A DNA stretch of 64,000 bases from a virus. Lineage: Duplodnaviria; Heunggongvirae; Uroviricota; Caudoviricetes. Where the stretch lies: IMG/VR virus record IMGVR_UViG_3300031413_000001. The stretch is one strand, 5' to 3'. The notes under the pieces were generated by a model. That model did not search any database. It worked only from the letters and a program-made list of their open reading frames with translations, and was not told where the DNA came from. The position numbers and the translations under genes were made by a program. Positions 18,684 through 54,279 of this stretch are shown here, piece by piece (positions within the stretch are counted from its first letter, which is position 1; each line of letters begins with the position of its first letter).

Positions 18684-18944
18684 TCAGCCCCACGTTAGCT
18701 TGAACAGCAAGGCAGTGTTGGGATCCTTGAAAAAGAAGTCCGCATTGCCATAACTGGGATAGCAGTAATATACCCAATCACTGTAGTATCGCTCGTCCGT
18801 GAGAACATGCGACTCCAGCCAATCCCTTACCTCTGGTAACAAAGCTGGCTGATTGGGCCAGTCCAATGATACCACGTTGTTCAGCGGTACCTCATGGACC
18901 GGATACATCCAGGGACCATTGCGACGTATCTGAACCGCATTCAT
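18684..18944 (-). CDS. FKLxW-motif family protein
   Basis: PEVRDWLESH...FFFKDPNTALLFKLTWG. Confidence 0.8.
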   Translation of the reverse strand: MNAVQIRRNGPWMYPVHEVPLNNVVSLDWPNQPALLPEVRDWLESHVLTDERYYSDWVYYCYPSYGNADFFFKDPNTALLFKLTWG

Positions 18945-19315
18945 AGCCAGGTAAGTTTGAACAACATGGCCTGATCCTTCCGCCGGAAGTAGATCCAGTT
19001 CCAGTGCTCTTTGTACTTTCCACTTGCGTTTTGTGGCATCAGGACAAAGTCGTCATCTGACAGATTGGCCTTGATCCAATCCATCATGGCCAGTTCCTGC
19101 GAGTCATCAACGGATCGGCCAATAAAGGCAACTGGCATGCCATGTGGGTGATCTTTGATCTCTTCCTCAAAGTTCATTTCGCTCTGACGAAGAAGTAGCT
19201 CACGCATCTGGAGGAAGAGCGAAGCACCATCAGCCCCCGGTTTGGAAAACTGGTCCTGAACCGCCTGGATCTTCTTGAGGATTTCCTCGTCGAAGTTTTC
19301 GTAGACGTTGCTCAT
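18941..19315 (-). CDS. FKLxW-motif family protein
   Basis: DWIKANL...IYFRRKDQAMLFKLTWL. Confidence 0.8.
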   Translation of the reverse strand: MSNVYENFDEEILKKIQAVQDQFSKPGADGASLFLQMRELLLRQSEMNFEEEIKDHPHGMPVAFIGRSVDDSQELAMMDWIKANLSDDDFVLMPQNASGKYKEHWNWIYFRRKDQAMLFKLTWL

Positions 19316-19608
19316 CGTCCACCCCACGTGAGCTTGATGTACGTGGCAGATCCCAGATCGTTCAAGAACAGAATGGGTTCCATAGACTGAAGGCGACGTT
19401 GTGGGCCTGATGGCATGGTAACAAAGGTCTTCTTGGTATGACGATGGTCGATCGCTTGGATCAAGACCTCGTAATCCACGTTTTCCTTTTTGCCCGACGA
19501 GATCAGCCAGGCTTCCACTTCTTCAAGGACCTCGGTGTTCTTCATGCGAATATGATGTGACCACGGCCCATGCTTTGCCAGCATGTAGAAGAGTGGCTTC
19601 AATGCCAT
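19312..19608 (-). CDS. FKLxW-motif family protein
   Basis: EVEAWLI...LFLNDLGSATYIKLTWG. Confidence 0.75.
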   Translation of the reverse strand: MALKPLFYMLAKHGPWSHHIRMKNTEVLEEVEAWLISSGKKENVDYEVLIQAIDHRHTKKTFVTMPSGPQRRLQSMEPILFLNDLGSATYIKLTWGGR

Positions 19609-19853
19609 GCGAGCTTGAACTTCATCGCATCGTTGTGATCATGGAAGGCAATCCTCAGACCACCATACTCCTTGTGCTCATAGAGGTACCAATGGCTCTT
19701 GACCATGTCCTGGAGCCAGCTCTTTACTTCTGGCACAACGGTAAAGTGGGTTCCATTCCGCTTGATGCTGGTCTTCCGAACGATCAGGTCCGACCGGACT
19801 TCTTCACTGTGGGGACGAACTTTCACTGGAACCTCTTTGTCTAATTGCCACAC
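19599..19853 (-). CDS. FKLxW-motif family protein
   Basis: PEVKSWLQD...IAFHDHNDAMKFKLAWH. Confidence 0.8.
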   Translation of the reverse strand: MWQLDKEVPVKVRPHSEEVRSDLIVRKTSIKRNGTHFTVVPEVKSWLQDMVKSHWYLYEHKEYGGLRIAFHDHNDAMKFKLAWH

Positions 19854-19887
19854 TTTTATTACATGAATAGAACAACGTCAACCGCTG

Positions 19888-20280
19888 TTAGATTCTCAGA
19901 CCCCAAACGTGACTCTTAAACTGGCCAGCCAGCTCACGGGTCTCAAACTGCACAAACCAAGCCTTGCCATCCCACAGTCCCTTTTTGTAGCTGGGAGAGT
20001 GTTCGGCGCCTGGAACGGGCACTAGGACGGGAACAACCTCGGGGGCAAAGTGTTCCAGCCAGACACGCTCCGCATACCGTATATCAATCTTACTGAACAG
20101 CATGTTGCCATGCTCCTTCCAATAGTTGATTGATCGCTTGTACTTGGAAGTCCGACGCCTCTTGATTCGCCGTGCCTTGGCACTTACGGGGCCTCCCCGT
20201 CCACTCAAACTTCTAAGAAATGCCCTGCCGGACATTCTCCGTGCCTTCGTACTCTTGGTGCGACTTTTTCTTTTTGCCAT
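19888..20280 (-). CDS. FKLxW-motif family protein with very basic N-terminus
   Basis: VWLEHF...VQFETRELAGQFKSHVW; K/R-rich first 50 aa. Confidence 0.65.
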   Translation of the reverse strand: MAKRKSRTKSTKARRMSGRAFLRSLSGRGGPVSAKARRIKRRRTSKYKRSINYWKEHGNMLFSKIDIRYAERVWLEHFAPEVVPVLVPVPGAEHSPSYKKGLWDGKAWFVQFETRELAGQFKSHVWGLRI

Positions 20281-20757
20281 TTAGCCCCACGCAAGTTTGA
20301 ACATCAGCGCAATGGATTCCTTCTTGAACAAGAAGACCTCACGCTCCCGCTTGTCAATCTCCACAATGCAGACTTGGTACTTAAAGTTCTGCTCACGAAG
20401 CCATGCAAGGATTGTGCGACGATGAGCAGTTCGTAGCTCAAGTGTTTCTTGATCCATACGGGGCAGGACCCATCGCTTTGCAGGAAGGTTGTCCACATTG
20501 GGAGCGCGAGTGACTTTGATCTCCCCGCCCTTTTGATGGAACTTGGGATCGTACTTGCTTTCCCAAGCCTTCCTCTGTGTGTAGTAACTCTGAGGCTTCA
20601 TGACTTCCTCACCTGGCTCAATGAAGTCATACCAAAATGGCATTGGAAACAGGATCTTGGGGTAGATAACATTACTGAAGGGTTGGAATATGGACTGGCT
20701 GATAGTGGTCTTGCCCATCTGCCGGCCAGCAATAATTGGATAGTGTCGTCCAGACAT
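20281..20757 (-). CDS. FKLxW-motif family protein with N-terminal terminase-like Walker A peptide
   Basis: IIAGRQMGKTT at the N-terminus; AWLREQ...FLFKKESIALMFKLAWG. Confidence 0.75.
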   Translation of the reverse strand: MSGRHYPIIAGRQMGKTTISQSIFQPFSNVIYPKILFPMPFWYDFIEPGEEVMKPQSYYTQRKAWESKYDPKFHQKGGEIKVTRAPNVDNLPAKRWVLPRMDQETLELRTAHRRTILAWLREQNFKYQVCIVEIDKREREVFLFKKESIALMFKLAWG

Positions 20758-20859
20758 AGGATCTCGCAAGCTATCGTGTCGATCTTTTCCTGCGATAACT
20801 CAATATAGTACCATGTACTCTGGAGTGCAAGAGTTGAGGGTGGCCGTTAAGCCACCCCC

Positions 20860-21750
20860 TTAGGCATTCCAAACTGGATCGAGAGCCACATCATCGACCG
20901 AGTAATCGTTCTTGCCAGCACTCCTCGAGAATGCTTCCAAGAAACGCTCACGTGCCTCGTCGAAACGATCCGGCATCACGGCCCTGACTTTGTTGACCAG
21001 CTTCTCAAAGGTGTTGACCTCCGAGTGATCCACTGGCGTACCAAACAAGAGTTCCAAGACAGCACTGGGTTCCGTTACGTGGTTCAAGCGAGAGAACCTG
21101 GGAGCACCAGGAACGCTTGTCTCGAACTCGTCTGCGGTCACCACGTTCATGCCCTGACCATCCCGCTTCAGCATCTTCCACTGACGGTACAAGCCCTTTT
21201 CCAAGTCAAAGCGGAAGCCCACTCTTGCGACACGGACTCCATCCTGCAGGAGTTCAAAGTCCTTGTGCATCTTGGCCAACACACCCAACATCGTGGACAA
21301 CATGACACCCTTGTAGGGGCTGTTGTCCTTGCCGGGCGAAAAGTGGCTGAACTTCAACCATTCAGGATTACCGGCCACGAAGTCAACCTGCACAAAACCC
21401 TTCTGAGGATCGCCAGCAACTGGGAAGGCAGTCTGAAACTGACCACCCTTGAGGGTCTTGGTCTGAACATGACCCGGAGGCAAGACTTCCCAAGCACGCT
21501 CGGCGAAAGCCCTCAAGCTGAACACCGGAAGATCGGCCTCACCGTGGAACCGGGCTGCCTTGTTGTTCAAGGCAAAGTCCAGATCGCCGCTGTCGGCCTG
21601 TTTTCCCGCGCTGCCCATCATGTTATCCATGGCGTACGCCATATCAAACCCAGGCATGTTCATTACGGATACAACATGATTTACAGTGGAGACAACATCC
21701 TCCCTTCGGACTCGCACCATCTGCAAGCCCGGAAACGCATTTCCGCCCAT
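20860..21750 (-). CDS. Pol-beta-superfamily nucleotidyltransferase
   Basis: MGGNAF...GSAGKQADSGDLD...VQVDF (hG[GS]x7-13DxD plus a third Asp). Confidence 0.7.
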   Translation of the reverse strand: MGGNAFPGLQMVRVRREDVVSTVNHVVSVMNMPGFDMAYAMDNMMGSAGKQADSGDLDFALNNKAARFHGEADLPVFSLRAFAERAWEVLPPGHVQTKTLKGGQFQTAFPVAGDPQKGFVQVDFVAGNPEWLKFSHFSPGKDNSPYKGVMLSTMLGVLAKMHKDFELLQDGVRVARVGFRFDLEKGLYRQWKMLKRDGQGMNVVTADEFETSVPGAPRFSRLNHVTEPSAVLELLFGTPVDHSEVNTFEKLVNKVRAVMPDRFDEARERFLEAFSRSAGKNDYSVDDVALDPVWNA

Positions 21751-21914: not shown

Positions 21915-22160
21915 TCAACCTATTGGATTGCTCTCGTTCTTTAGCTTCATCTTGTCTCGAATCAGCTGACGAACTTCCTCGTCGTCGGTCAAGATATCAA
22001 CAACGTCGGGGTGGAGTGCTGCTGAACCGCCACCCATTCCACTGAGCATCCGCTGGGAAACAAAGCACGTCATGACCGCAGCGGTCATGATCTGGCCAGG
22101 CTCTGCTGGGAATATGGGCCGGAGCCCATAAGCGATGATCTTCTTAGCCATAGTTGACAT
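21915..22160 (-). CDS. hypothetical protein
   Basis: Short ORF in the minus-strand operon. Confidence 0.55.
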   Translation of the reverse strand: MSTMAKKIIAYGLRPIFPAEPGQIMTAAVMTCFVSQRMLSGMGGGSAALHPDVVDILTDDEEVRQLIRDKMKLKNESNPIG

Positions 22161-22701
22161 TTCCCCCTGCCTTCACCGAACCATAGACGTCATCGCAGCT
22201 TACGCTGCCGCCGGCTTCCACGTTTCCGCCAACCTCATCACAAGAGACGGAACCGCTTGCCTTGACATCACCGCCCACGTCACCACAGGAAACGGATCCC
22301 TGAGCTGTCACGCTCTCCGTGACATTGCCCGTGATGGTGATCGACTGGTCGCTGGAGACGTTCTTCACATCGCCCTGGACCTTGATCTCTAGAACGGTGG
22401 ACATGTCCACGCCCGACTGATCGGTAACGTCCTTTCCATCAACGATGATGCGTCCACCAACCATCGAGATGTTGTTGCCGTGAAACGTCCGGCCATTGAC
22501 TTGCATTGTTCCCATGCCACTTCCCCTGTTGTTGAATCGCCCGACCACGTCACCGCCGGTCATGTCGCCATTGACGACCCTCGAATTCCTGTGCCCACTT
22601 TTGGCAGCTTTCTGGTAAGCGGCAATCACGATACAGATGCTCGTTCCTGCCATCATACCTAGAACAAAGATGATCGCTTGAAACCAAAACGGAATCATCA
22701 A
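22144..22701 (-). CDS. membrane-anchored protein with beta-solenoid repeats
   Basis: N-terminal TM helix; (A/S)GSVSC(G/D)(D/E)VGG.V repeated three to four times. Confidence 0.7.
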   Translation of the reverse strand: MMIPFWFQAIIFVLGMMAGTSICIVIAAYQKAAKSGHRNSRVVNGDMTGGDVVGRFNNRGSGMGTMQVNGRTFHGNNISMVGGRIIVDGKDVTDQSGVDMSTVLEIKVQGDVKNVSSDQSITITGNVTESVTAQGSVSCGDVGGDVKASGSVSCDEVGGNVEAGGSVSCDDVYGSVKAGGNVNYG

Positions 22702-26255: not shown

Positions 26256-28613
26256 ATGTCCTTGGATAATTTCGATCCAACAAAGGCTCAGGAAGTCTTT
26301 GAACGTGCTTCGCAGATTGCGGAGCGACACGACCACGAATACGTGACACTTGAGCATCTTCTTGCCAGTGTCATGCAGGATCCCAAGGTTCTGGAAACCC
26401 TTCAGGAAATTGGCGCCAACACTTCTGACCTTTCGGCGGACTTGTTGGCTCACTTCAAGACGGATCTTCTGGGCAAAGGCAACGGACGTGCGCCTCGCCA
26501 GACGCAGCCACTGGCTCGCGTTGTCAACAGGGTGGTCGCTCAGTGCTTTTTCAGTGGTCGAATGGACATTCGCCCCATTGACATCCTGATCTCCATCTTG
26601 AACGAAAAGGATGAGAACAGTCACGCTTGCTATTTTCTGGCAAAGCAGGGCGTTGAACTTCTGGACGTAAAGCTGGCAGTCAGCCACGACAGCGATCTCG
26701 ATGATGACGAGCCCACGGTCAAGGAAGTCGACGAAAACGGCAACGAGATTCCCGAGGAAGAGGGCAAGGTCCGCAAGACCAAGGCCGAGCGTCTTCTCGA
26801 GAAGTTCTGCGTGAACTTGAACGAGGCTGCACTGGCCGGCAAAATCGACCCACTGATTGGTCGCGAGTCGGAAGTTGCCACGCTGGTGTTGACGACTGCT
26901 CGTCGCACGAAGAACAACGTGGTGCTGGTCGGTGAGCCGGGCGTTGGTAAGACCGCAGTAGTCGAGGGTCTGGCCAAGATGATTGCAGAGGAGCAGGTTC
27001 CCGACGCGATCAAGGGCAGCATCGTTTACTCGCTGGAAATCGGCGCACTGATGGCAGGCACCAAGTTCCGTGGTGACATGGAAGAGCGCGTCAAGCAGAT
27101 CATCGATGCAGTGGAAAAGGTTGGCGAAGAGAAGGGTATCCTGCCCATCTTGTTCATCGACGAAATCCACACCATCATGGGCGCAGGCGCTGGTTCATCG
27201 GGTGCCCTGGACGTTGCCAACTTGCTCAAGCCCGCGCTGGCCAAGGGAAAGCTTCGCTGCATCGGCGGAACAACCTACGAGGAATATCGTAAGCACTTTG
27301 AAAAGGACCGGGCTCTGCTCCGTCGTTTCCAGAAGCTGGATGTTCTGGAGCCCAGCATCGAGGACGCCAAGCGGATCTTGATTGGTCTCAGCAAGGTCTA
27401 TCAGGACTACCACGGCGTTACCTACGATGTGGACGCCCTGGAAGCCGCAGTGGACTTGACTGCCCGCTACGTCACGGACCGGATGCTTCCTGACAAGGCC
27501 ATCGACGTCATCGACGCCGCTGGTGCTCGACAGAAGATTGCCCCCGAGGCAGACCGGAAGCTGATCATCGACACGCTTCTCATCGAACAGGAAGTCTCGA
27601 GGATTGCAAAGATCCCCGCACGGACGGTTCATGAGGATGAGACCGACAAGCTGGCTCACCTGAAGAGTGATCTGCTGAAGGCAGTGTTTGGTCAGGACAC
27701 CGCAGTGGAGACCGTTGACAATGCGGTCATCCTGAGCCGTGCTGGTCTCCGTGACCCCAACAGGCCACAGGGCAACTACTTGTTCGCTGGTCCAACGGGT
27801 GTTGGCAAGACGGAACTTGCCAAGCAATTGGCGTCCACGCTGAGCATTCCTCTCCATCGCTTTGATATGAGCGAGTACTTGGAAAGCCACAGCATCAGCA
27901 AGTTCATCGGTTCGCCTCCGGGCTACGTGGGCTTTGGCGACGGTCAGGCTGGTTCGGGTCTTCTGGCAAACGCCATCGAGGGAAGCCCACACAGCATTCT
28001 CTTGTTGGACGAAATGGAGAAGGCGCATCCAGACATCTTCAACATTTTCCTGCAGATCATGGACAACGGTGAGTTCACGACCAGCGCAGGCAAGAAGATC
28101 AACTGTCGCAACCTGATCCTGATCATGACCACCAATGCTGGTGCCAAAGAACTTCAGAAGAACAGCTTGGGCTTTGGGGGCAACAGTGTGGCGGGCAATG
28201 ATGACAAGGTCATCGAGAGCACGTTCACTCCGGAGTTCCGCAACCGCCTGGACGCCATCGTCAAGTTCAATGCGCTGAAGAGCGAGAACATGATCTTGAT
28301 CGTGGACAAGTTCATCGGTCAGCTGAACGCAATGGCCAAGCTGAAGAACGTTCAGATCATGCTCAGCGACAAGGCCCGCGAGTACCTGGCAGTCAAGGGA
28401 TACGATCCCAAGATGGGTGCGCGTCCTCTGAATCGACTGATTCAGAATGAGCTGTCCCAGCCACTGAGCCGCGCAATGCTGTTCGGTGATCTGAAGAACG
28501 GTGGTACTGCGATGGTCGACGCCGACGAGGGCGCACTGATCGTCCAGACGTTCCCCACCCCTCCGGCAACCCCGGAAGTCGTAGCTGAGTTTGCTGCCGA
28601 CACCGCTGCCTAA
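26256..28613 (+). CDS. clpA: ATP-dependent Clp protease ATP-binding subunit ClpA
   Basis: HEYVTLEHLL N-domain, GEPGVGKT, FIDEIH, GPTGVGKT, LLDEMEKAHPD, SLGF ClpP-docking loop, no ClpB middle domain. Confidence 0.95.
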   Translation: MSLDNFDPTKAQEVFERASQIAERHDHEYVTLEHLLASVMQDPKVLETLQEIGANTSDLSADLLAHFKTDLLGKGNGRAPRQTQPLARVVNRVVAQCFFSGRMDIRPIDILISILNEKDENSHACYFLAKQGVELLDVKLAVSHDSDLDDDEPTVKEVDENGNEIPEEEGKVRKTKAERLLEKFCVNLNEAALAGKIDPLIGRESEVATLVLTTARRTKNNVVLVGEPGVGKTAVVEGLAKMIAEEQVPDAIKGSIVYSLEIGALMAGTKFRGDMEERVKQIIDAVEKVGEEKGILPILFIDEIHTIMGAGAGSSGALDVANLLKPALAKGKLRCIGGTTYEEYRKHFEKDRALLRRFQKLDVLEPSIEDAKRILIGLSKVYQDYHGVTYDVDALEAAVDLTARYVTDRMLPDKAIDVIDAAGARQKIAPEADRKLIIDTLLIEQEVSRIAKIPARTVHEDETDKLAHLKSDLLKAVFGQDTAVETVDNAVILSRAGLRDPNRPQGNYLFAGPTGVGKTELAKQLASTLSIPLHRFDMSEYLESHSISKFIGSPPGYVGFGDGQAGSGLLANAIEGSPHSILLLDEMEKAHPDIFNIFLQIMDNGEFTTSAGKKINCRNLILIMTTNAGAKELQKNSLGFGGNSVAGNDDKVIESTFTPEFRNRLDAIVKFNALKSENMILIVDKFIGQLNAMAKLKNVQIMLSDKAREYLAVKGYDPKMGARPLNRLIQNELSQPLSRAMLFGDLKNGGTAMVDADEGALIVQTFPTPPATPEVVAEFAADTAA

Positions 28614-31463: not shown

Positions 31464-34400
31464 ATGGCAGACAAGTCAGGACCCACTCCCAACAAGCCTG
31501 GAACTTACCTACCAGTTCCTGGTCAGCCTACGAGCAAGGATCCAACCAACAACGACGCGGCCAATGAGTCGAAGATCGGAAATCAGAACGCCACAACCAG
31601 CGAACCTGGCGCAACTTCCAATGACATTAGGGTCGAGCAGACTGCCAATGATGGAAAGCGTTATTTTGCCGCTGGAAAGCTGTCCGATGAGACTCCCGTA
31701 CTTGGTAGCGGTGGTGTAGCCACTGTCGTTGGTCCTCCTGGACCCAAGGGTGATACTGGTCCCAAGGGTGACAAGGGTGACCAAGGATTCACTGGCGTCA
31801 CTGGTGCAGATGGCCCTGCTGGTCCACGAGGACCCAAGGGTGAGAATGGCTCCACCGGTGCAACTGGTCCTGCTGGCGCCAAGGGCGACAAAGGTGAAAA
31901 GGGCGATAAGGGAGACAAGGGCGATACTGGTGCCCAGGGTCCCGCAGGTGCGTCGGGCAACGGCGCGGCTGTAATTGTCGCTGAACGAAACTACGATGAA
32001 AACGGCGGATACGTTGACACCCCAGCGATCAATCCAACAGCTCGCATTGCCTTCACTGGCGCGGGCGTTGAGGTCCTGACTGAGGACGCGCATGTTTCCA
32101 CGGCAGTGGTTCACATTCCAGGATTGGAAGTTCGCCAGGCAACCATTGATCCCACAAGCCAGCCACCAGGTCTGGTCTATGACGATGCGCTGGAAACCTC
32201 GTCGCTTACCTTTGTGGGTGGTGCGTTGGTTCAGGCCAACCCCGATGATGAATACGACACGGTGGTTTTTGTCAGCACCAAAGTTACTGGTCCTGCTGGA
32301 GGCTCGCTTCCCAACTTTCCAATGAATGTTTCCAACGCTGGCTACAATGAGGTCAACGCTTGGAACTTTAACTTTGGTCCAGGCTTCATGGTTGCTCCTG
32401 GTCAGAATCCAGGCGACGTCTTCATTGATCTTGATGGCGCCGGCGGTGACGGTGGCGGCTCACAGCCAGTTCTGATCAAGCCCGGTGAAGTTGGCGGACA
32501 GCGTTTTCCAATTGGTGAATTGACCATTGGTGATGGTCTGGATATTGGCTTCCCATATGGCTATCAGGATCAGAATGGCGACTATCAGCAGGGTCCTCTG
32601 GTTCTTCAAAGCGAAGGAACAGAACTCTGGGGATGGAACCCTGGCATCAACGGCGGTCAGGGTGGCTTCATTGACTACGGCTATCAGAGGCAGATGCGCT
32701 TTCAGGCTGGTGATGGCATCCAGCTGGACTATCAGGACAGCAATGAAGATGGTCAGTATGGTCAAAAGAAGATCGTCATCAGTGCAACTGGTGGCGGTGG
32801 CGGTGCCGGTTCGGTTGGCCCTACTGGTCCACAAGGTCCTGCTGGTCCCACTGGTCCACAAGGCGAGAAAGGCGATACTGGACCTGCAGGTCTAGACAGG
32901 CAGCCTGCTACGGTTGTTGGCCCGAACGGCCAAGACCCAATTACAGGTGTTAATCGTTTTAGCTTTGGCACTGGATTCAATGTTTCCAGCAGCGCAGTAA
33001 CCGGCGAAGCTGTCATCAACTTCACGGGTGGATCAAGTGGTGGCACGGCTGCACCACTCCGAATTTGGACTCGCAACGGTGATATTCAGGTTGCTAATGA
33101 TGTCACACAAATTGGACTTGATGGCCTCGTTTTGAAGCCTACAAGCGGACAGAACTATCCAACTCTTACTTGGCCAGGTCTATACGTTAATGTCTATAGT
33201 CCTAGTCTTGGCGGATATATTCCCAGTCAGAGTACTCAGACGTCGATTTATTTCAAGGCTGGTACTGGTATTTCGCTTGAAGCGACAACAGCTTATACCA
33301 ACCAACGAGTGGTTACTATCAATTCAACGGTAACTGGTACTCAGGGTGCCACAGGCGCTACTGGTGCTACTGGTGCTACAGGTGCCATCGGCCCTCAGGG
33401 TCCTGCTGGTCCTACTGGTGCCGCAGGCCCCAAGGGTGATACTGGCCCAGCTGGCACCAATGGCACCAATGGCAGTTATGTGTCTTCCGCAGACGTTGTA
33501 AGTGATTCCTTGGTCCTCACAATGAGCGACAACACCAAGGTCAATGTCAGCGGTACTGTTCGTGGTTCCAAGGGCGATACTGGTGAACAAGGCCCTGCAG
33601 GAACTGCCGGTGCAACTGGTGCCGTTGGCCCAGCTGGTCGAAATGTTGTTGGTGCTGCGGTAACCAACTCTCACTTGATCCTTGCAATGAGCGACAGCAC
33701 CAACATTGATGCCGGTAATATCACTGGCCCCAAGGGTGATACTGGTGCAAAGGGCGACACAGGATCGCAGGGACCAACTGGCGCAACTGGACCCAAGGGT
33801 GATACTGGCGCAAGCGGTCGTGGTATCGTTTCGGCAGTTATCAACGCTGAAGGAAACTTGGTTGTTGATTACTCCGATAGCACGTCATCTATCGCTGGTA
33901 AGGCTCGCGGTGACAAGGGTGATACTGGTGCAAAGGGTGATACCGGTGCAAGTGGTCCAGCAGGTCGAAGCGTAACTTCGGCAAGCATCAACCAGACCAC
34001 GGGTGACTTGACACTGGCTCTGAGCGATGGAACGTCGGTCAATGCTGGCAACTCCAAGGGAACCGCAGGACGTGGTGTAACCAACGCCGCTATTGATGGC
34101 AATGGCAAGCTGATCGTTACCTACACGGATGGTGCCACTGTTGATGCAGGTCAGGCACGCGGACTAAAGGGTGATACAGGATCCACAGGTGCCACTGGCC
34201 CAGCTGGTGAGACCGGTCCCGCAGGCGTTGCTGGTCCACAGGGAGTCAAGGGTGACAAGGGTGATACTGGCACGGCTGGTACGAACGGAAACATCACGGC
34301 AGTTCAAAGCAGTGGTGCAACGACTAAAGCTAATCCAACGTTCATCAACTTCACCGGCACTGGCGTAACGGTCAATGCAAGTGGTACTGGTGTTGATGTT

Positions 34401-34766
34401 AATATCGCTGCTGGGTCAGGTGGTTCAGGTGGTTCGGGTGGAGGAAACGCCAACGTACTCAGCTTCGTAGCTAACTTTGATAGCAGCGGTGCGCTGTCAA
34501 CAGTAGAGGGTGCATCTGCTGGTATGACTGTGACCAAAACTGGTACCAACTCAGTTGATGTCACTTATACGGCTCCTCTGGGATATCCAGGTATCGTTGG
34601 ATGTTTTGGTACCAACGGATCCACCGGGGTTACTACGTGGAAGGTATCCCCTGGTTTTACAGTTACAGTTGCGGCCGCTGGCAGCTTCTCAATGACAAAC
34701 GTTGCAGCAACACAATCAGGCGCAACGCCAAACGGTAAGGCACGTATCAGCTTCACTATGGTATAA
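31464..34766 (+). CDS. collagen-like tail fibre protein
   Basis: Multiple Gly-X-Y runs (GPKGDTG, GATG) alternating with 'GR.V..A.I...G.L.v.ySDg' knob repeats. Confidence 0.85.
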
Positions 34767-39680: not shown

Positions 39681-41690
39681 ATGAAGCGGGAACAGGCCAA
39701 CAACGTGGAGCAGGGAACGGTAGATCAGTTCGTTGCATCCGACGTCGCTCTCGAGATTCTCTCGGGCGATCGTGAGGCAACCGAACAGGACCTCGTATAT
39801 GTTCTGACCGAGGCATCCGATCTCTTCCACAACAGCGAGGATGGCAACAGCTTCATCACTGATCAGCAGTATGATGAACTGGAAAAGATGCTGAAGGTCC
39901 TGGCCCCCAGCAATCGGTTCCTCACCACGGTGGGTTCGGATGTTCGCGGTGGCAAGGTCGACCTTCCCCATCCCATGGGCTCACTCGATCAGTGCTATGA
40001 AGGCGAGACCATCGAGTGGGTCACGAAGAACGGCTGGCTCGATGAACTGTTCGTTGTTTCGGACAAACAGGACGGAACGTCGGCCCTCAACGTTCACACC
40101 AAGAACAAGCTGCAGATTTCCTACTCCCGTGGTAATGGCTACCAGGGCGCGGACATCACGCGTCATATGACGCGCATCAAAGCGGTCCCCACCAAGGCCA
40201 AGCTGAACGCAACGGTTCGTCTTGAGGTCATCATGGCCGACGACGTGTTCGCTGCAATGCGGACTCAGGCCGAGGCAGAGGGTGGTCGCGTATATAAGAA
40301 CGCCCGCAATTACGTTGCAGGTCGTATGAACGCCAGCGAGTCGCCGGACAGCTTCTACGACAACGTCAGTGTTATCGCTACTTCGGTGGTCGAGCCCAAG
40401 ATGGGCAAGCTGGAGCAGATCAAGCTTCTCGAGGAAGCTGGCTATCGGTGTTCCCCATACGTTGCGGTTCGTGGTCGTGAACTCACGGACGCATATCTGA
40501 CGGAGCGGCTCAATCGACGCCGCGCAGAAAGCCCAACGGCTCTCGATGGTCTGGTCATCGATCTCGATGATGCAACGATCCGCGCCAACTTGCGACGCAA
40601 TTCCAGCAGCCTCAATCCCATGTACTCGCGGAAGTTCAAGGTCGGCGGCGAAGACAACGTGGCGATCGCCGAGGTCGTGAAGGTTCACTGGAACCCCAGC
40701 AAGAGCGGCTACTTGAAGCCTCGCGTGGAGATCAAGCCGGTCGACCTCGTGGGTGTGACGATCACTTACGCGACGGGCTTCAACGCCAAGTTCATCAAGG
40801 AACGGTCGATCGGGCCGGGCGCCAAGATCCAGATCACTCGCAGCGGCGATGTCATCCCCTTCATCCAGAAGGTCGTGGAGCCGGCAGCAACCTGGCAGGA
40901 GCCCAGCGAGGCCGAGTTCGGCGAGCTCTGCTGGACCGAGGGCGACGTCGATCTCTTCCTGAAGGATCCCACGCAGAATCGACAGGTTCAGCTGGAAATC
41001 ATCAACAGCTTCTTTGGCTCGCAGGGCCTGGACGTTCCCCATCTTCGTGAGGGCAGCATCGAGAAGCTCTATGATGCAGGGCTGAAGACGCCGGCTTCCA
41101 TCATCCTGGCCGACGAGGCAACGCTCAAGGCAGGGGCCGGTGACAGCGCAGGCACCAAGATCTACAACGGGCTCAAGCTCAAGCTGGGCAACGTGGAACT
41201 GGGTATCCTCGCAGGCTCCAGCAACCTGATGGGCCGCGGCATCGGTCGCCGAAAGATGACCAAGCTGATCGAGGCAATGGGCAGCGACCCCGTGTTGGTG
41301 GCCTTCCCGGGTGTTCAGCTGGCCAAGGAAATCTCCGCCCTCGATGGCTTCGGCGATATCATCGCCCGCACGATCGTGGAAAACCTCGACACCTTCCGGG
41401 CGTTCCTGAAGGAAATCGACGGCCACTACACGCTGGTACAGCCCAAGGAAAAGGTCACCGGTGGTGATCTCGATGGCGTAACGGTCGTGTTCACGGGTAT
41501 CCGGGACAAGGATCTGGAGGCCAAGATTGAGGCACGTTCGGGTCGGATCGGCTCCTCGGTCAACAAGGACACCACGTACTTGGTGGCCAAGGATCCCGAC
41601 GGCAAGAGCAGCAAGCTGGTAAAGGCCGCTGATCTTATCGGACAGGAGAACATCATCTCCATCGCGAAGGCAAAGGAACTCTGGGGATAA
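39681..41690 (+). CDS. ligA: NAD-dependent DNA ligase
   Basis: ITDQQYDEL, HPMGSL, KQDG, SRGNG..G.DIT, DGLVI, RSGDVIP, C-terminal BRCT (VVFTG). Confidence 0.93.
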   Translation: MKREQANNVEQGTVDQFVASDVALEILSGDREATEQDLVYVLTEASDLFHNSEDGNSFITDQQYDELEKMLKVLAPSNRFLTTVGSDVRGGKVDLPHPMGSLDQCYEGETIEWVTKNGWLDELFVVSDKQDGTSALNVHTKNKLQISYSRGNGYQGADITRHMTRIKAVPTKAKLNATVRLEVIMADDVFAAMRTQAEAEGGRVYKNARNYVAGRMNASESPDSFYDNVSVIATSVVEPKMGKLEQIKLLEEAGYRCSPYVAVRGRELTDAYLTERLNRRRAESPTALDGLVIDLDDATIRANLRRNSSSLNPMYSRKFKVGGEDNVAIAEVVKVHWNPSKSGYLKPRVEIKPVDLVGVTITYATGFNAKFIKERSIGPGAKIQITRSGDVIPFIQKVVEPAATWQEPSEAEFGELCWTEGDVDLFLKDPTQNRQVQLEIINSFFGSQGLDVPHLREGSIEKLYDAGLKTPASIILADEATLKAGAGDSAGTKIYNGLKLKLGNVELGILAGSSNLMGRGIGRRKMTKLIEAMGSDPVLVAFPGVQLAKEISALDGFGDIIARTIVENLDTFRAFLKEIDGHYTLVQPKEKVTGGDLDGVTVVFTGIRDKDLEAKIEARSGRIGSSVNKDTTYLVAKDPDGKSSKLVKAADLIGQENIISIAKAKELWG

Positions 41691-42526: not shown

Positions 42527-43567
42527 ATGAGTATGAGTGATGCACCCCGCGTAGGATTCTGTTGCAAGTTTGAGACCTCCGACAAGGTCCTTGCAAAGAC
42601 CATGAACCAAGCGTCCACGACGCTTACCGCCCTCCGAAAGATGGCACCCAAAGAGGCATACGATAAGATCCATGGCCTCGTAACCCACAACGTCGCAACC
42701 CTTTACCGGCAGCTGGAATGGATCAGCCTCCAGCCCAAAGAGATGCGACTGTTTCGTATTGGCTCGGACTTTCTCCCCGCCTTTACGGTAACTGATCTGG
42801 AATGGATCTATCAGGACGCAGACATGAAGCGTCTGATCGAGGACGGCCTCCGGGACGTGCGAAAGACCGCTGATGCTTCGGGCATTCGTCTCTGCACCCA
42901 CCCCGGTCAGTTCACGATCCTTTGCAGCCAGAAGCCCACGGTGGTCGACAATGCAATCATCGACTTGAACTACCACGCCTACTTGGCAGAGCGTATGAGC
43001 TATGGCGACACCTACCATAGCAGCGGCTTTGCCATCAACATCCACGCCAACAACAATCTCGATCCTGGTCTGGTACAGCTCAAGGACGTGATCGCCAATC
43101 GTCTGAGCCCCACACTTCGGAATCTTCTGACCATTGAGAATGATGAGTTCGGTTGCTCCGTGGACGAGATCATCGCAGCCAAGCTGTATGATCACGTGGC
43201 GTTGGTTCTTGATATCCATCACCACTGGGTTGAGAGCAACGGCGAGTACATTCTACCAACCGATCCACGTATCGACTTTTACAAGGCAAGCTGGCACGGC
43301 ATTCGTCCGCTCAGCCACTTTTCAACTTCCAGCGAGGAGTTGCTAAATGGTGCTTGCTCTGTGACGCGACCAGACTTTATAGCACTTGGTACGGCTGGTC
43401 ACAAACCCAGCAAGCTACGGGCGCATTCTTATGGTTGCTGGAACGAAAGCAGCAATGAGTGGGCTCTAAGCCACTTGGTTTGGACTGACATTGAAGTCGA
43501 GGCGAAGGGAAAGCAAATTGCGTCACGGCAACTTTATGAACAAGCCAAAAGGACCGGTGTGGTATAA
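42527..43567 (+). CDS. uvsE: UV-damage endonuclease
   Basis: VGFCCK, LFRIGSD, HPGQF, TIENDE, LDIHHHW, EVEAK. Confidence 0.92.
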   Translation: MSMSDAPRVGFCCKFETSDKVLAKTMNQASTTLTALRKMAPKEAYDKIHGLVTHNVATLYRQLEWISLQPKEMRLFRIGSDFLPAFTVTDLEWIYQDADMKRLIEDGLRDVRKTADASGIRLCTHPGQFTILCSQKPTVVDNAIIDLNYHAYLAERMSYGDTYHSSGFAINIHANNNLDPGLVQLKDVIANRLSPTLRNLLTIENDEFGCSVDEIIAAKLYDHVALVLDIHHHWVESNGEYILPTDPRIDFYKASWHGIRPLSHFSTSSEELLNGACSVTRPDFIALGTAGHKPSKLRAHSYGCWNESSNEWALSHLVWTDIEVEAKGKQIASRQLYEQAKRTGVV

Positions 43568-45374: not shown

Positions 45375-45464
45375 TATGTCAGAGTGTCCTGAATATTGGC
45401 TCCATGATTGTTCTGGTGCTACGGTAAATATGCACCCTACAGTAAGAACATAAGGAGAATCTGT

Positions 45465-48443
45465 ATGTCCTATGTCGACGCAATGTATGACAAAGAAAAG
45501 GACGAGATTCTCATCGTAGAGCGCATTGGTGGTCAGCGGGTCTATAATACGATCCCAGCCAACTATGTGTTCTATTATGAAGATCCTCGCGGAGGTCGCT
45601 ACAAGGATATGTGGGGTCGCCCCGTATCCAAGAGCAGCTTTACCTCCAACAAAGCATTCCAGCGTGAGCTGAAGATGCAGGGAAGCCGCAAGATTTATGA
45701 AAGCGATGTCAACCCAATTTTCCGCTGCCTAGAGGAAAACTACAAGGGAATTGAGTCGCCGGTACTGAACATTGGCTTCTTCGATATTGAAACGGACTTT
45801 GATCCGGCTCGTGGCTTTGCGGATCCTTGGGATCCATTCAGTGCCATCACGGCAATTTCCGTTCATCGAACTTCCGACAACACCCTCTACACGATGGCGC
45901 TCAAGCCCAACCTGCCTGTCAATGACAAGGATCACCTGACTTGGGAGGCCGCGGATGCAATCTGTCGTTCACTTCCCAACACGATCCTTTGCAATGACGA
46001 AGTGCAGATGCTGAACATGTTCCTCGACTTGATTGAGGACTGTGATGTTCTCTCGGGCTGGAACAGCAAGGGATACGATATCCCCTATGTTATCAATCGC
46101 ATCGAGCGTTTGATGGGCAAAGACCACAGCAAGAGGATGTGTCTCTGGAACCAGCGTCCTCGTCGCCGAAAGTACATTGAGTTCAAGAAGGAAAAGGAAA
46201 CATACGAGCTAGTTGGCCGTATCCACCTGGACTACTTGGAACTCTATAAGAAGCACAATCCCAGCGAGCTTCACAGCTACCGACTGGATTATGTTGGTGA
46301 AATCGAGACTGGTGAAAACAAGGTTGCCTACAGTGGAACCTTGGACAACCTGTACAAGCGGGACTTTCACAAGTTCCTGGAGTACAATCGCCAGGACACC
46401 GCACTGCTGAACAAGATTGACCAGAAGAAGCGATTCATCGAACTGGCCAATCAGATTGCTCACACGAATACCGTTCTGCTTCCAACGACCATGGGCTCCG
46501 TGGCGCTGATTGAGCAGAGCATTATCAATGAAGCGCATGAGCGTGGAATGTGTGTCAGCAATCGTAAGCGTCCAGACTTTGAAGTCGATATGGACGAGGA
46601 CGATTGGGACGAGGACGAAGATGGTCCAAGGCCAGCAGGCTTTGGTGAAAAGCGACCAGTTGTGGGTGCCTATGTGGCAAAGCCAAAGATTGGCATCCAT
46701 GAGGAGATTGCTTGCTGCGACATCAACAGTCTGTATCCATCGGCACTTCGCGCACTCAACATGGGTCCCGAGACGCTGATTGGTCAGATTCGTCTGGACC
46801 GAACCAACGCGCTGATTGACAGTCGTTTGGCTCAGGGTATTCCTGGTCCGGAATGTTGGGAAGGCTTGTTCTGTACTCTTGAGTACACGATGGTCAATGA
46901 AAAGTCCAAGGAAGCAATGACTGTGGACTTTGAAGATGGTCACAGCATCCAGGTAACTGGTGAGCAGCTTTATGAGTACATCTTCCTTCAGGGCAATCCC
47001 TACTGCATCACGGCAAATGGTACGATCTTCCGTACTGACGTGGAAGCCATTATTCCAGGCTTGCTTGGTAAGTGGTACAGCCAGCGTAAGGAAATGCAGT
47101 TCAAAGAAACTGTCTACTCGGAAGCACTGGCACAGAGCAAGGGCTTTAAGGTACAGTGGGAAAAGTTCACCCCCGATCAGCACACTGGTCGCAATGGTGT
47201 GGACTTCAAGGAACTTCCCGAGTACATCCGCCTGGGTGACATGGACGCAATCAACATGCTGGTCAGCGACAACCTGATCCGCATCGATGGTGACAGGATC
47301 TTCATCGAGCCAGATGGCAAGTTGGAAGGCGAAAGTCTCCGAGTGTTTTGGAATCAGCGACAGCAGGCTCGTAAGATTTTGCTGAACTCCTTGTACGGCG
47401 CATTGCTGAACGAGGGCTGCCGATTCTATGACGCACGTATTGGTCAGAGCGTTACGCTGAGTGGTCGTTCGATCACCAAGCATATGAGCAGCAAGACCAA
47501 CGAGATCATCACTGGACAGTATGACGTTCGTGGTGACGCCATTCTCTACAATGATACTGACTCGGTGTATTTCACGGCTGTAAAGATGCTGGAGGCGGAT
47601 CCTGAGATGGCTCCCATGCTTCAGGATCGTGATGCGATGATTGAGCTGTATGATGGTATCGGTGATGCAGTAAATGACAGCTTTCCGCCCTTTATGGATG
47701 AGTGGTTTAACACTGGTCTGGAGCGCGGTGGCATCATCAGGGCTGGTCGAGAACTGATTGCAAGTCGTGGTCTGTTCATCACCAAGAAGCGTTATGCGCT
47801 CCTGATCTACGATCAGGACAACGTTCGAAAGGACGTCGATGGAAAGCCCGGAAAGATCAAAGCCGTTGGCTTGGATCTGAAGCGCGCTGACACGCCCAAG
47901 ATGATGCAGGAATTCCTTGAAAAGGTCATCACCACATTGCTTGATGGTGGAACCAAGGAAACGATCATTGACATGATCAAGACGTTCCGAACAGAGTTCC
48001 GAGGACTTTCGGGCTGGCTCAAGGGAACGCCCAAGAAGGTCAATGGCATCACGGGCTACATGTCTCGTCTCAATGAGGGTGAGGGCAAGGAACTGATCAA
48101 GGCTGGTGCCAGGGAAAAGGTACGAGTTCCCGGTCACGTTCAGGCAGCCATCAACTGGAACAAGCTCAGAAGGCTCTACGGAGACAACTACTCCATGGAG
48201 ATCACCGATGGTCAGAAGGTCATCGTCTGCAAGCTTCGTCCCAACAGCATGAAGATGGACAGCGTCGCGTATCCCTTTGACGAGCCGCATCTTCCGCAGT
48301 GGTACAAGGAACTTCCCTTCAACGATGAGGAAATGGAGAACGCCATTATTGACAAAAAGGTGTCAAACCTCATTGGTGTGTTGAAGTGGGATCTGAGTGC
48401 AACGCGCGAAGACACAACGTTCAATGACCTATTCAGCTTTTAA
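45465..48443 (+). CDS. family B DNA polymerase
   Basis: ExoI FDIET, ExoII WNSKGYD, DINSLYPS, KILLNSLYG, YNDTDS, KKRY. Confidence 0.96.
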   Translation: MSYVDAMYDKEKDEILIVERIGGQRVYNTIPANYVFYYEDPRGGRYKDMWGRPVSKSSFTSNKAFQRELKMQGSRKIYESDVNPIFRCLEENYKGIESPVLNIGFFDIETDFDPARGFADPWDPFSAITAISVHRTSDNTLYTMALKPNLPVNDKDHLTWEAADAICRSLPNTILCNDEVQMLNMFLDLIEDCDVLSGWNSKGYDIPYVINRIERLMGKDHSKRMCLWNQRPRRRKYIEFKKEKETYELVGRIHLDYLELYKKHNPSELHSYRLDYVGEIETGENKVAYSGTLDNLYKRDFHKFLEYNRQDTALLNKIDQKKRFIELANQIAHTNTVLLPTTMGSVALIEQSIINEAHERGMCVSNRKRPDFEVDMDEDDWDEDEDGPRPAGFGEKRPVVGAYVAKPKIGIHEEIACCDINSLYPSALRALNMGPETLIGQIRLDRTNALIDSRLAQGIPGPECWEGLFCTLEYTMVNEKSKEAMTVDFEDGHSIQVTGEQLYEYIFLQGNPYCITANGTIFRTDVEAIIPGLLGKWYSQRKEMQFKETVYSEALAQSKGFKVQWEKFTPDQHTGRNGVDFKELPEYIRLGDMDAINMLVSDNLIRIDGDRIFIEPDGKLEGESLRVFWNQRQQARKILLNSLYGALLNEGCRFYDARIGQSVTLSGRSITKHMSSKTNEIITGQYDVRGDAILYNDTDSVYFTAVKMLEADPEMAPMLQDRDAMIELYDGIGDAVNDSFPPFMDEWFNTGLERGGIIRAGRELIASRGLFITKKRYALLIYDQDNVRKDVDGKPGKIKAVGLDLKRADTPKMMQEFLEKVITTLLDGGTKETIIDMIKTFRTEFRGLSGWLKGTPKKVNGITGYMSRLNEGEGKELIKAGAREKVRVPGHVQAAINWNKLRRLYGDNYSMEITDGQKVIVCKLRPNSMKMDSVAYPFDEPHLPQWYKELPFNDEEMENAIIDKKVSNLIGVLKWDLSATREDTTFNDLFSF

Positions 48444-52757: not shown

Positions 52758-53839
52758 CCATTTACATCATGGCTCTTGAGCCACTTGACACGCGATACAC
52801 TGGACAATGGTTCAACGGCCTTCCCAGCCTTATCAGGTCGGAGGCCGAGAGCCGTGGTGTGCAGGTTGAAGTGGTCAACATTGCTGGTGAGCAAACCAGC
52901 AGCACGGTAACCGAGGGAGCCTTTCTAGACTTCTTCGCAACCAACATCTGGAAGAACACACAAGTCAACGAGCTGGTTCGTCGCTTTCAAGCAGGCGAGG
53001 TCAAAGCTGGTGACAAGGTGCTGTTCACGGATGCCTGGCACACTGGTATCACACAGGTTCGCTACATGAGTGAACTGATGAACATTCCAGTTGAGATTCA
53101 CAGCATGTGGCATGCTGGATCCTATGATCCCCAGGACTTTTTGGGTCGGCTGATCAAGGACAAGAAGTGGACGTTCAATACTGAGCGTGGTCTGTTCTTT
53201 GCAGCGGATTTCAACTACTTTGCGACTACGTATCATCGCGATCTGTTCATAGACACCCTGTTCATTCACGCAGATGCGTGGGAACGCTATGAGGCACGAA
53301 AGCGTTGCCTGATTAGCGGACAGCCCCACAACGCACTCGTTGAAGCACTGGAACCGTTCCGTGGCATGCAGAAGGAACGACTGGTTCTCTTTCCCCACAG
53401 GTTGGCTCCGGAAAAGCAGGTTGAGATCTTCCGAGATCTTTCGACGCGGATGCCGGGTACCAAGTTTGTGGTCTGTCAGGATGAAAAGCTAACCAAGGAT
53501 CAGTACCATGATCTCTTGGGTCGTGCCATGATGGTTTTCAGTGCCAACTTGCAGGAAACCCTGGGTATCAGTGCCATGGAGGGTGTTCTCGTGGATGCCA
53601 TGCCATGCTTGCCCAACCGGCTTTCCTATACTGAGATGTATGAGGAAAAGTACCTCTACCCTAGTGAGTGGACCAAGGACTGGAAGAGCTATGTGGCTCA
53701 CCGCGATGAACTGATCAGCCACATGAACGTGATGATGGATGACTACTGGGAAACCTGCGAGGTGTTGAAGCAGCAAAAGACCAGGCTCCTAGATCACTAC
53801 TTGAGTTGTAAGCCAATGCTGGATGGATTGTTGGGATGA
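52754..53839 (+). CDS. GT-B glycosyltransferase
   Basis: FPHRLAPEKQ...ETLGISAMEG (Ex7E motif). Confidence 0.8.
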   Translation: MTIYIMALEPLDTRYTGQWFNGLPSLIRSEAESRGVQVEVVNIAGEQTSSTVTEGAFLDFFATNIWKNTQVNELVRRFQAGEVKAGDKVLFTDAWHTGITQVRYMSELMNIPVEIHSMWHAGSYDPQDFLGRLIKDKKWTFNTERGLFFAADFNYFATTYHRDLFIDTLFIHADAWERYEARKRCLISGQPHNALVEALEPFRGMQKERLVLFPHRLAPEKQVEIFRDLSTRMPGTKFVVCQDEKLTKDQYHDLLGRAMMVFSANLQETLGISAMEGVLVDAMPCLPNRLSYTEMYEEKYLYPSEWTKDWKSYVAHRDELISHMNVMMDDYWETCEVLKQQKTRLLDHYLSCKPMLDGLLG

Positions 53840-54279
53840 CCGCCATTCTCGTAACCAAGGCTCGCAGGAGTCGTTACATTTCCAAGGAAGTCTTTGAGAA
53901 TCGTGCCGACGCTCGTGGAACAGCGCCCACGTGGGTTCCTGCGCCTGGTTACGAGGACCTAGTCAGGGCCTTTATCAACAACAAAGCCTACGCGGAGTTT
54001 GTCACCGCGTATTTTGATGACATGGATAGAGGTCGCGGAAGTGACTATGAGGACATCGATGAATGGATCATGGACCTCAAGGACTTCTGTGATCGCAACT
54101 GCACAGGGCTGTGGACCTACCATCAGAACTACCGGCGGAACAGCGACTTCAACAGCAAGACGCATCACTACTCCTACCATGACACTGGCACTGGTCGACT
54201 GAGTGTTCACTTTGAAAACGAAGCAGACGTCGAGATGTTTCTAACCAAGTGCCCAATTTTCCAAAATGATAAATCATAA
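53836..54279 (+). CDS. FKLxW-motif family protein (divergent)
   Basis: KDFCDRNCTGLW...VHFENEADVEMFL. Confidence 0.55.
   Translation: MTAILVTKARRSRYISKEVFENRADARGTAPTWVPAPGYEDLVRAFINNKAYAEFVTAYFDDMDRGRGSDYEDIDEWIMDLKDFCDRNCTGLWTYHQNYRRNSDFNSKTHHYSYHDTGTGRLSVHFENEADVEMFLTKCPIFQNDKS

Follow-up and report, generated by a model that had tools for sequence, protein, structure and literature searches.

The question that this locus raises is why a small protein ending in the FKLxW signature should carry, close to its N-terminus, a Walker A motif of the type found in the large terminase (TerL), and what such a segment might do there. The window—by which we mean the whole stretch of 64,000 nucleotides analyzed—comes from a very large, uncultured phage, whose nearest record, here G001, is a 416.7-kb IMG/VR virus with 57% of the sampled 31-mers in common; cultured phages gave neither a DNA nor a protein match. 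The gene, designated P0001, occupies positions 20281–20757 on the minus strand and encodes 158 amino acids followed by a stop codon, in a translation that starts MSGRHYPIIAGRQMGKTTIS and terminates in ALMFKLAWG. A TTG at 20769, four codons upstream of the ATG, is a possible alternative start; since homologues of 53–65% identity have the same 'MS[GS]..YP' beginning, the ATG is the likely start codon. Orthologues at 92–93% identity are found in G001 and in two other contigs. The intergenic region 5' of the gene (20770–20859, minus strand) contains, as read by eye, a 7-bp GC-rich hairpin at about 20838–20857, directly past the stop codon of the preceding gene, together with a weak promoter-like site, TTGCAC-17-TATATT; a consensus scan of the same region called neither of the two. 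Within the gene, codon 52 (20602–20604, minus strand) is an internal ATG (M52, ...GGTGAGGAAGTCATGAAG), where the sequence GAGGA is more Shine–Dalgarno-like than its counterpart at the annotated start, and several homologues, P0003 and P0018 among them, begin at exactly this residue, so that the same gene could also yield an isoform lacking the tail.

Codons 1–18 correspond to 20704–20757, and residues 10–18 read AGRQMGKTT, in which the general Walker A pattern GxxxxGK[ST] takes the TerL form RQxGK[ST]; the motif proper, GRQMGKTT (residues 11–18), lies at 20704–20727 on the minus strand. The translation of 20281–20757 bears out the preliminary description, which had reported a terminase-type Walker A peptide at the N-terminus of an FKLxW protein of about 158 residues. 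The comparison with the Walker A of terL came out as identity: RQMGKTT recurs letter for letter in the TerL of the three nearest jumbo-phage records (G001, G005, and G006), and therefore this phage's own TerL, as judged from these relatives, very probably carries the same motif. At this site the G001 TerL reads ...NRYTIALTARQMGKTTCAAGF... and, over a longer stretch, ...LWPYQEDMIDSFHKNRYTIALTARQMGKTTCAAGFLLWKAMFEPD..., letters that are the same in the TerL of the other two, both complete relatives of ~465 kb. The TerL sequences used for comparison, also with the tails of the three further motif-bearing clades described below, are those of relatives of this phage (G001, G005, G006). Immediately before the motif stands YPIIA (residues 6–10; 20728–20742, minus strand), a short hydrophobic run at the place where TerL has its strand beta-1 (TIALT), and in a local Smith–Waterman alignment of the P0001 tail to TerL residues 69–102 the strand and the P-loop were aligned together, with a z of about 4 and 1 of 500 shuffles scoring as well. 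At the DNA level, 18 nucleotides (CAGATGGGCAAGACCACT) are identical between P0001 and the G001 terL. Because the flanking DNA is unrelated and codon usage alone would give such codon identity over the motif with a P of about 0.017, we do not read those nucleotides as a recent conversion tract, and a recent gene conversion from terL is accordingly unsupported.

The preliminary description had also stated that the protein lacks an ATPase body, and the AlphaFold2 models agree. In the model of P0001, obtained from an alignment of 13 sequences, residues 1–78 were left unstructured, with a pLDDT below 50; in that of the distant homologue P0043, obtained from 43 sequences, the pLDDT was about 50 for the tail and 83–95 for the C-terminal domain. 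In both models the tail is nearly devoid of secondary structure and unattached to the C-terminal domain, which predicted disorder is a soft call because the alignments were shallow. What does fold is the C-terminal FKLxW domain (residues 80–158; 20284–20520, minus strand), a beta-alpha-beta-beta-alpha arrangement of the RRM/ACT type with a pLDDT of 74–90 in P0001, for which fold searches returned RRM/ACT/ferredoxin-like matches of a weak and generic kind (VIA-align Z about 5; Foldseek E above 0.1). Such a domain of four to five elements is the sole folded part, and the three-layer alpha/beta fold of an ATPase is absent from both of these shallow-alignment models. Beyond the P-loop we could place neither a Walker B (hhhhDE) nor a catalytic carboxylate. 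The conserved CxVxID strand is part of the FKLxW domain, and P-loop-less members have it too. The Pfam and PHROG profiles matched nothing significantly in either the whole protein or its tail, and neither Terminase_6N (PF03237) nor the PHROG terminase matched P0001 even at an E of up to 10, ATP-synt_ab being the sole P-loop Pfam family to match the tail, below threshold (E 0.07–0.36). Finally, we found no longer fused homologue with an ATPase body among proteins of 278–2000 residues. With the fold, the Walker B, the profile match, and the fused form all absent, a real NTPase can be ruled out, and P0001—so far as these models and searches can tell—is not one.

A weaker version of enzymatic function would be a minimal nucleotide-binding element, in which the strand, the P-loop, and the helix (along with a YQ motif in some clades) fold upon oligomerization or contact with a partner and bind ATP or another nucleotide in trans, so that the protein would be a sensor or regulator rather than a mimic. 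A precedent is offered by beta-(P-loop)-alpha polypeptides that were designed at a comparable size and are reported to bind nucleotides and nucleic acids, and the kept motifs, YQ and Walker A, are those through which TerL touches the adenine and the phosphates. Nevertheless, we consider this alternative improbable: the Walker B and the catalytic glutamate are missing, the tail is unfolded and free of the C-terminal domain in the two AlphaFold2 models, the beta-1 spacer has been shortened to only 3–5 residues in P0001 and P0038, and most family members lack the element altogether. As a separate observation on the same region, residues 17–52 (SIFQPFSNVIYPKILFPMPFWYDFIEP; window 20602–20709, minus strand) matched Crov539, a protein of FNIP repeats (PDB 7zal), at each of its repeats, with a summed E of 3.6e-7; because every repeat taken alone has an E of 12 or worse, we rejected the FNIP-repeat reading, the likeness being probably due to chance.

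P0001 heads a row of six small minus-strand genes (18684–20769), each encoding a product with an FKLxW-like end, the five tandem paralogues directly downstream (18684–18944, 18941–19327, 19312–19608, 19599–19853, and 19888–20280) being without a P-loop. The row is thus a tandem array of diverged paralogues of the FKLxW family, small proteins of jumbo phages that form an undescribed group, and P0001 itself has the family tail, ...A[LVM][ML]FKL[AT]W[G], on a strand-strand-helix unit. There are 13 real FKLxW-tailed open reading frames in the window, and from 39 to 63 in G001, depending on the filter. The product of the paralogue at 19888–20280 (minus strand) has a deviant tail, QFKSHVWGLRI, and its first 50 residues are extremely rich in arginine and lysine (MAKRKSRTKSTKARR...RRIKRRRTSKYKR), an arm whose composition suggests nucleic-acid binding. 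The preliminary description had put forward the open reading frame at 53836 as a weaker example of the same kind; that frame (53836–54279; MTAILVTKARRSRYIS...) has neither an FKLxW end nor a GK[ST], and we dismiss it as a family member and as a carrier of a P-loop. No Pfam family but PF24448 (T4_y05I_C) was matched by two or more members of the P0001 orthogroup; it was found in 4 of 43 with a best E of 0.038 and in P0001 with 12.4 bits (E 0.21), all below the curated cut-off of 27 bits. The matches cover the last strand and helix of the FKLxW domain, as at 20284–20388 (minus strand) in the window, and a distant link between that domain and a T4-type small-protein domain is possible. Among the BFVD fold matches of the FKLxW domain, too, are small proteins of T4-like phages.

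The genes around the array are of other kinds. Directly upstream, at 20860–21750 (minus strand), lies the gene of a 296-residue protein in which GSAGKQADSGDLDF is similar to the signature G[SG]...DxD of nucleotidyltransferases of the polymerase-beta type, though Pfam and PHROG gave no match to it. The open reading frame at 22144–22701 (minus strand), of 185 residues, has an N-terminal membrane helix followed by GG[DN]V.A.GSVSC..V repeats that, as read by eye, look like a bactofilin-type beta-helix. Farther on, the plus strand encodes a ClpB/ClpA-like double AAA+ protein (26256–28613), a collagen-repeat protein of 1100 residues (31464–34766), an NAD-dependent ligase (39681–41690), UvdE (42527–43567), and a family-B polymerase (45408–48443).

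We examined the distribution of the motif in an orthogroup sample of 43 members, with a maximum-likelihood tree built from their conserved part. Conservation is high over the C-terminal ~100 residues, in the blocks RKAWES..., LPAKRWV, KYQxCxVxI, and VFLFKKExxALMFKLAWG, and the linker RKAWESKYDPKF...LPAKRWV (residues 62–97; 20467–20574, minus strand), mostly of low pLDDT, defines the orthogroup through the invariant K63, W65, E66, S67, L91, P92, W96, and V97. The N-terminal tails, for their part, are hypervariable or absent; that of P0001 (residues 1–58; 20584–20757, minus strand) is hypervariable according to two alignments and predicted to be disordered from its pLDDT of below 50. The pattern R[QS]xGK[ST] occurs in 7 of the 43 tails, spread over four separate clades of the tree: as PI[IT]AGRQMGKT[TS] in the P0001 clade, as LSLIATGRSTGKSMM, containing GRSTGKS, in the P0037/P0043 clade, as LYGR[QS]MGK[ST][ST] in the P0038/P0044 clade, and as IFIHARQHGKS in P0013. 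The preliminary description had taken conservation among homologues as decisive for the motif, and on this point the outcome is divided: the P-loop is missing from 36 of the 43 members, yet has been kept in four deep clades. IMG/VR scans with P0038, P0043, and P0013 gave no match, and the scan of one metagenome added no further P-loop-bearing members.

Three of these clades have more than one sequence, and in two of the three no part of the tail is conserved better than the motif. P0037 and P0043 are identical at 24 of 24 residues over the strand and the P-loop, with flanks that are 50–60% identical; P0038 and P0044 have kept DLYDYQKAxLYGRxMGK, and their Walker A cores differ only by Q/S and SS/TT, which substitutions preserve the pattern. 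In the P0001 clade the dN/dS was 0.26–0.30 for the tail versus 0.05–0.10 for the remainder of the gene, and a tail with such values is both coding and constrained.

These data bear on the possibility that a P-loop-like string of low information arose by chance or convergence in hypervariable tails and has nothing to do with TerL. A single 6-mer shared with a large phage protein is indeed to be expected: exact 6-mers common to the FKLxW variable regions and the large G001 proteins numbered 5, against 4.2 expected by chance, so that there is no excess indicating a general borrowing of motifs across the FKLxW family (the small-ORF control of that test was unusable, as it contained overlapping and paralogous frames). 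The identity of codons with terL, moreover, is explicable by codon usage at a P of about 0.017, with unrelated flanks, and RQxGKT-type P-loops are also found in the alpha subunits of the F1-ATPase. Because one shared 6-mer is expected by chance, it is the recurrence in clades and not the single match that carries the argument: composition-preserving shuffles of the tails would give 0.004 motif-bearing sequences, against the 7 seen, and none of 5000 shuffles reached 7. Since the motif has been kept in four distant branches of the orthogroup, its recurrence there is, on the sequences compared, not due to chance; and with the conservation within clades, the colinear YQ motif in two of them, and the top rank of TerL in an independent profile added to the shuffles, the chance reading as a whole is largely refuted and retains in our estimate but a slight probability.

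That profile comprised 21 columns built from the three other clades only, with none from the P0001 lineage, and was run against the 676 non-overlapping proteins of G001. TerL ranked first of the 676 (14.4 bits, E 8e-4) and the G001 orthologue of P0001 second (E 2e-3), the next protein having an E of 0.5; the other P-loop proteins of G001, ClpB and the helicases included, all had E values above 0.5. The designation of the Walker A as terminase-type, made in the preliminary description, thus stands insofar as the other-clade profile puts TerL first; it does not stand as an exclusive property of the letters, as RQxGKT also occurs outside terminases (ATP-synt_ab, E 0.07).

Alignments of single tails point in the same direction. 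The P0043 tail is colinear with TerL from LLPYQ (LWPYQ in TerL) through the strand and the P-loop into the next helix (z 4.2–4.5, 0 of 500 shuffles), and the P0044 tail aligned over the YQ and the P-loop (z 2.8–3.9). By raw Smith–Waterman score among the 676 proteins, TerL ranked first for P0043, second for P0044, first among the non-self proteins for P0001, and nineteenth for P0013. The upstream adenine motif of TerL, L-x-[PD]-Y-Q, is present in the TerL order in two sister clades, in one of them with a TerL-like spacing. In an ESM Atlas language-model look-up, the closest clusters with a name included short fragments of terminase ATPases (score 0.81), which is a weak lead. Phmmer searches with single tails against all G001 open reading frames failed to find TerL, and hhalign gave no alignment of the whole-family alignment with TerL. 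A likeness of the P-loop-less tails to TerL through the YQ motif was considered and rejected, as the best alignments were scattered along TerL, z did not exceed 2.5, and of the 22 just 4 lay near the ATP site. Separately, residues 7–32 of P0035, a distant homologue (SSRQQYTGNRVQIVILDELKPMKPN), aligned without gaps to the arginine-finger/Walker B stretch of TerL (TSKDAGRGLSITLLYLDEFAFVQPN) with a z of 2.1–2.5, which makes it a lead at most; if that alignment is real, another lineage displays a different TerL motif.

Likeness to TerL would also follow if the tail were a reused relic of a fusion, in which a 5' piece of terL—or of a TerL-ATPase paralogue such as T4 vs.8—was captured at the front of an FKLxW gene, which thereby gained its start, with the P-loop letters afterwards kept in a few lineages as a glycine-rich basic loop for some contact unrelated to TerL (with phosphate, nucleic acid, or a partner of its own). 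The TerL-like order and spacing of YQ and Walker A in P0043 are what true descent predicts, the C-terminal fold resembles the RNA- or ligand-binding RRM/ACT domains, and the tails have often been truncated or replaced in the orthogroup, for which last reason the TerL-like segment appears to be dispensable in most of its lineages. What such a history leaves unaccounted for is the choice of letters: those conserved are the exact TerL signature (R, Q/S, GK, S/T) and not those of any basic loop, and the signature was kept in four clades while the rest of the supposed fragment decayed. We therefore hold this reuse to be a serious rival, with perhaps one chance in four.

In our judgment the tail of P0001 is very probably a selected, non-enzymatic segment of the TerL type. 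The protein consists of two parts, a C-terminal FKLxW domain of ~80 residues and, before it, the linker RKAWES...LPAKRWV with a tail of ~55 residues that AlphaFold2 leaves unfolded. The ATP-site segment of TerL, from the Q motif through beta-1 and the P-loop to the start of alpha-1, would have been the source or the model of the tail, and selection would have preserved its least variable letters in some lineages while removing the segment from most. As to function we are far more guarded: that the tail works as a mimic or competitor is a tentative proposal, to which we give well under an even chance, and the full statement, in which a TerL-type segment acts as a linear stand-in, we regard as no likelier than that.

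Among the proteins that give a phage away to bacterial immune sensors (Avs1-3, Upx), the terminase is one of the foremost. In the proposed mechanism, the FKLxW domain would hold out a linear TerL segment as a stand-in, and the displayed segment would compete with nascent or unfolded TerL for some factor that binds this stretch of it. A host sensor of the Upx type may be the most plausible candidate; since Upx has been modeled as threading unfolded TerL ATPase strands, a target for a linear stand-in is conceivable. A protease or a chaperone would be an alternative. That one FKLxW branch displays the TerL Q motif and Walker A on a disordered arm so as to blunt host immunity or proteolysis directed against nascent or unfolded TerL is a more speculative step, which we think rather doubtful. 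To our knowledge, self-mimicry of a core-protein motif as a counter-defense is a principle undescribed for phages, and we know of no phage that answers sensing by copying the sensed terminase segment. What the comparisons document is a TerL-type ATP-site segment that selection has kept, within uncultured jumbo phages and in four old lineages, on a small unrelated protein whose tail is predicted to be unfolded. Should the tail titrate a TerL-binding factor, it would give a first functional handle on a family that counts roughly a hundred genes in each of these genomes; should it not, the case would remain a documented example of a core-enzyme fragment pared down to its signature letters and nonetheless retained.

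The preliminary description had interpreted the motif as a decoy presenting a terminase Walker A epitope to the STAND receptors Avs1-3. Such a decoy would agree with the terminase type of the motif in the other-clade profile, and Avs1-3 do sense TerL through contacts that include the ATP site (PMC13601566). EcAvs2, however, binds the folded ATPase domain, burying about 2830 A2 of it together with a bridging ATP (PMC13601566), and in at least 12 of 14 Avs families the receptor wraps around the folded core of its target through broad, shape-complementary interfaces (PMC13581612). The tail has no fold and has been lost in most homologues; because a disordered stretch of 20 residues cannot copy a folded TerL interface, sensors of the Avs type are a poor fit, and we consider an Avs1-3 decoy very unlikely.

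Among known systems, the TerL ATPase of the T4 gp17 type (Terminase_6N, PF03237) resembles the tails in having [GA]R[QS]xGK[ST][ST] after a hydrophobic run and, as regards two sister clades, in placing the adenine motif L-x-P/D-Y-Q likewise ahead of it, but the tails hold about 20–50 of the roughly 250 residues of that domain, are predicted to be unfolded, and lack the Walker B, the catalytic glutamate, the arginine finger, the nuclease domain, and any Pfam match. The alpha/beta domain of the F1/V1-ATPase (PF00006) gave the best Pfam match to residues 2–26, at the subthreshold E values given above; nothing else is similar, however, and the phage has no such ATPase, TerL being the specific match in its proteome. 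The likeness to PF24448 is limited to the last strand and helix of the FKLxW domain, with all scores far under the cut-off. Upx has been modeled to bind the unfolded TerL ATPase strands beta-1, 4, 5, and 6 by a backbone beta-augmentation that is independent of sequence (PMC13601566). Thus the unfolded ATP-site region of TerL, beta-1 included, can be a binding target; the recognition being sequence-independent, though, it would not explain the conservation of RQxGK[ST]. The Gol peptide of T4 gp23, which acts with EF-Tu and the Lit protease, is, as outlined in PMC13581612 (its refs 46–47), a linear peptide of a core protein that is read by a defense system, and hence a precedent for a host factor that recognizes a brief, unvarying segment of a core protein of the virion or of packaging; according to the same outline, Gol lies within the real capsid protein and triggers the defense, whereas the TerL-like stretch sits on a separate small protein. 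T4 vs.8, finally, is an accessory protein of small size that resembles the TerL ATPase and shows toxicity together with EcAvs2 (PMC13601566). Compared by description only, vs.8 has a folded ATPase-like domain with Walker A and B, whereas P0001 carries linear motifs on an unrelated domain, but each is an extra phage protein that repeats the ATP-site motifs of TerL beside the real terminase.
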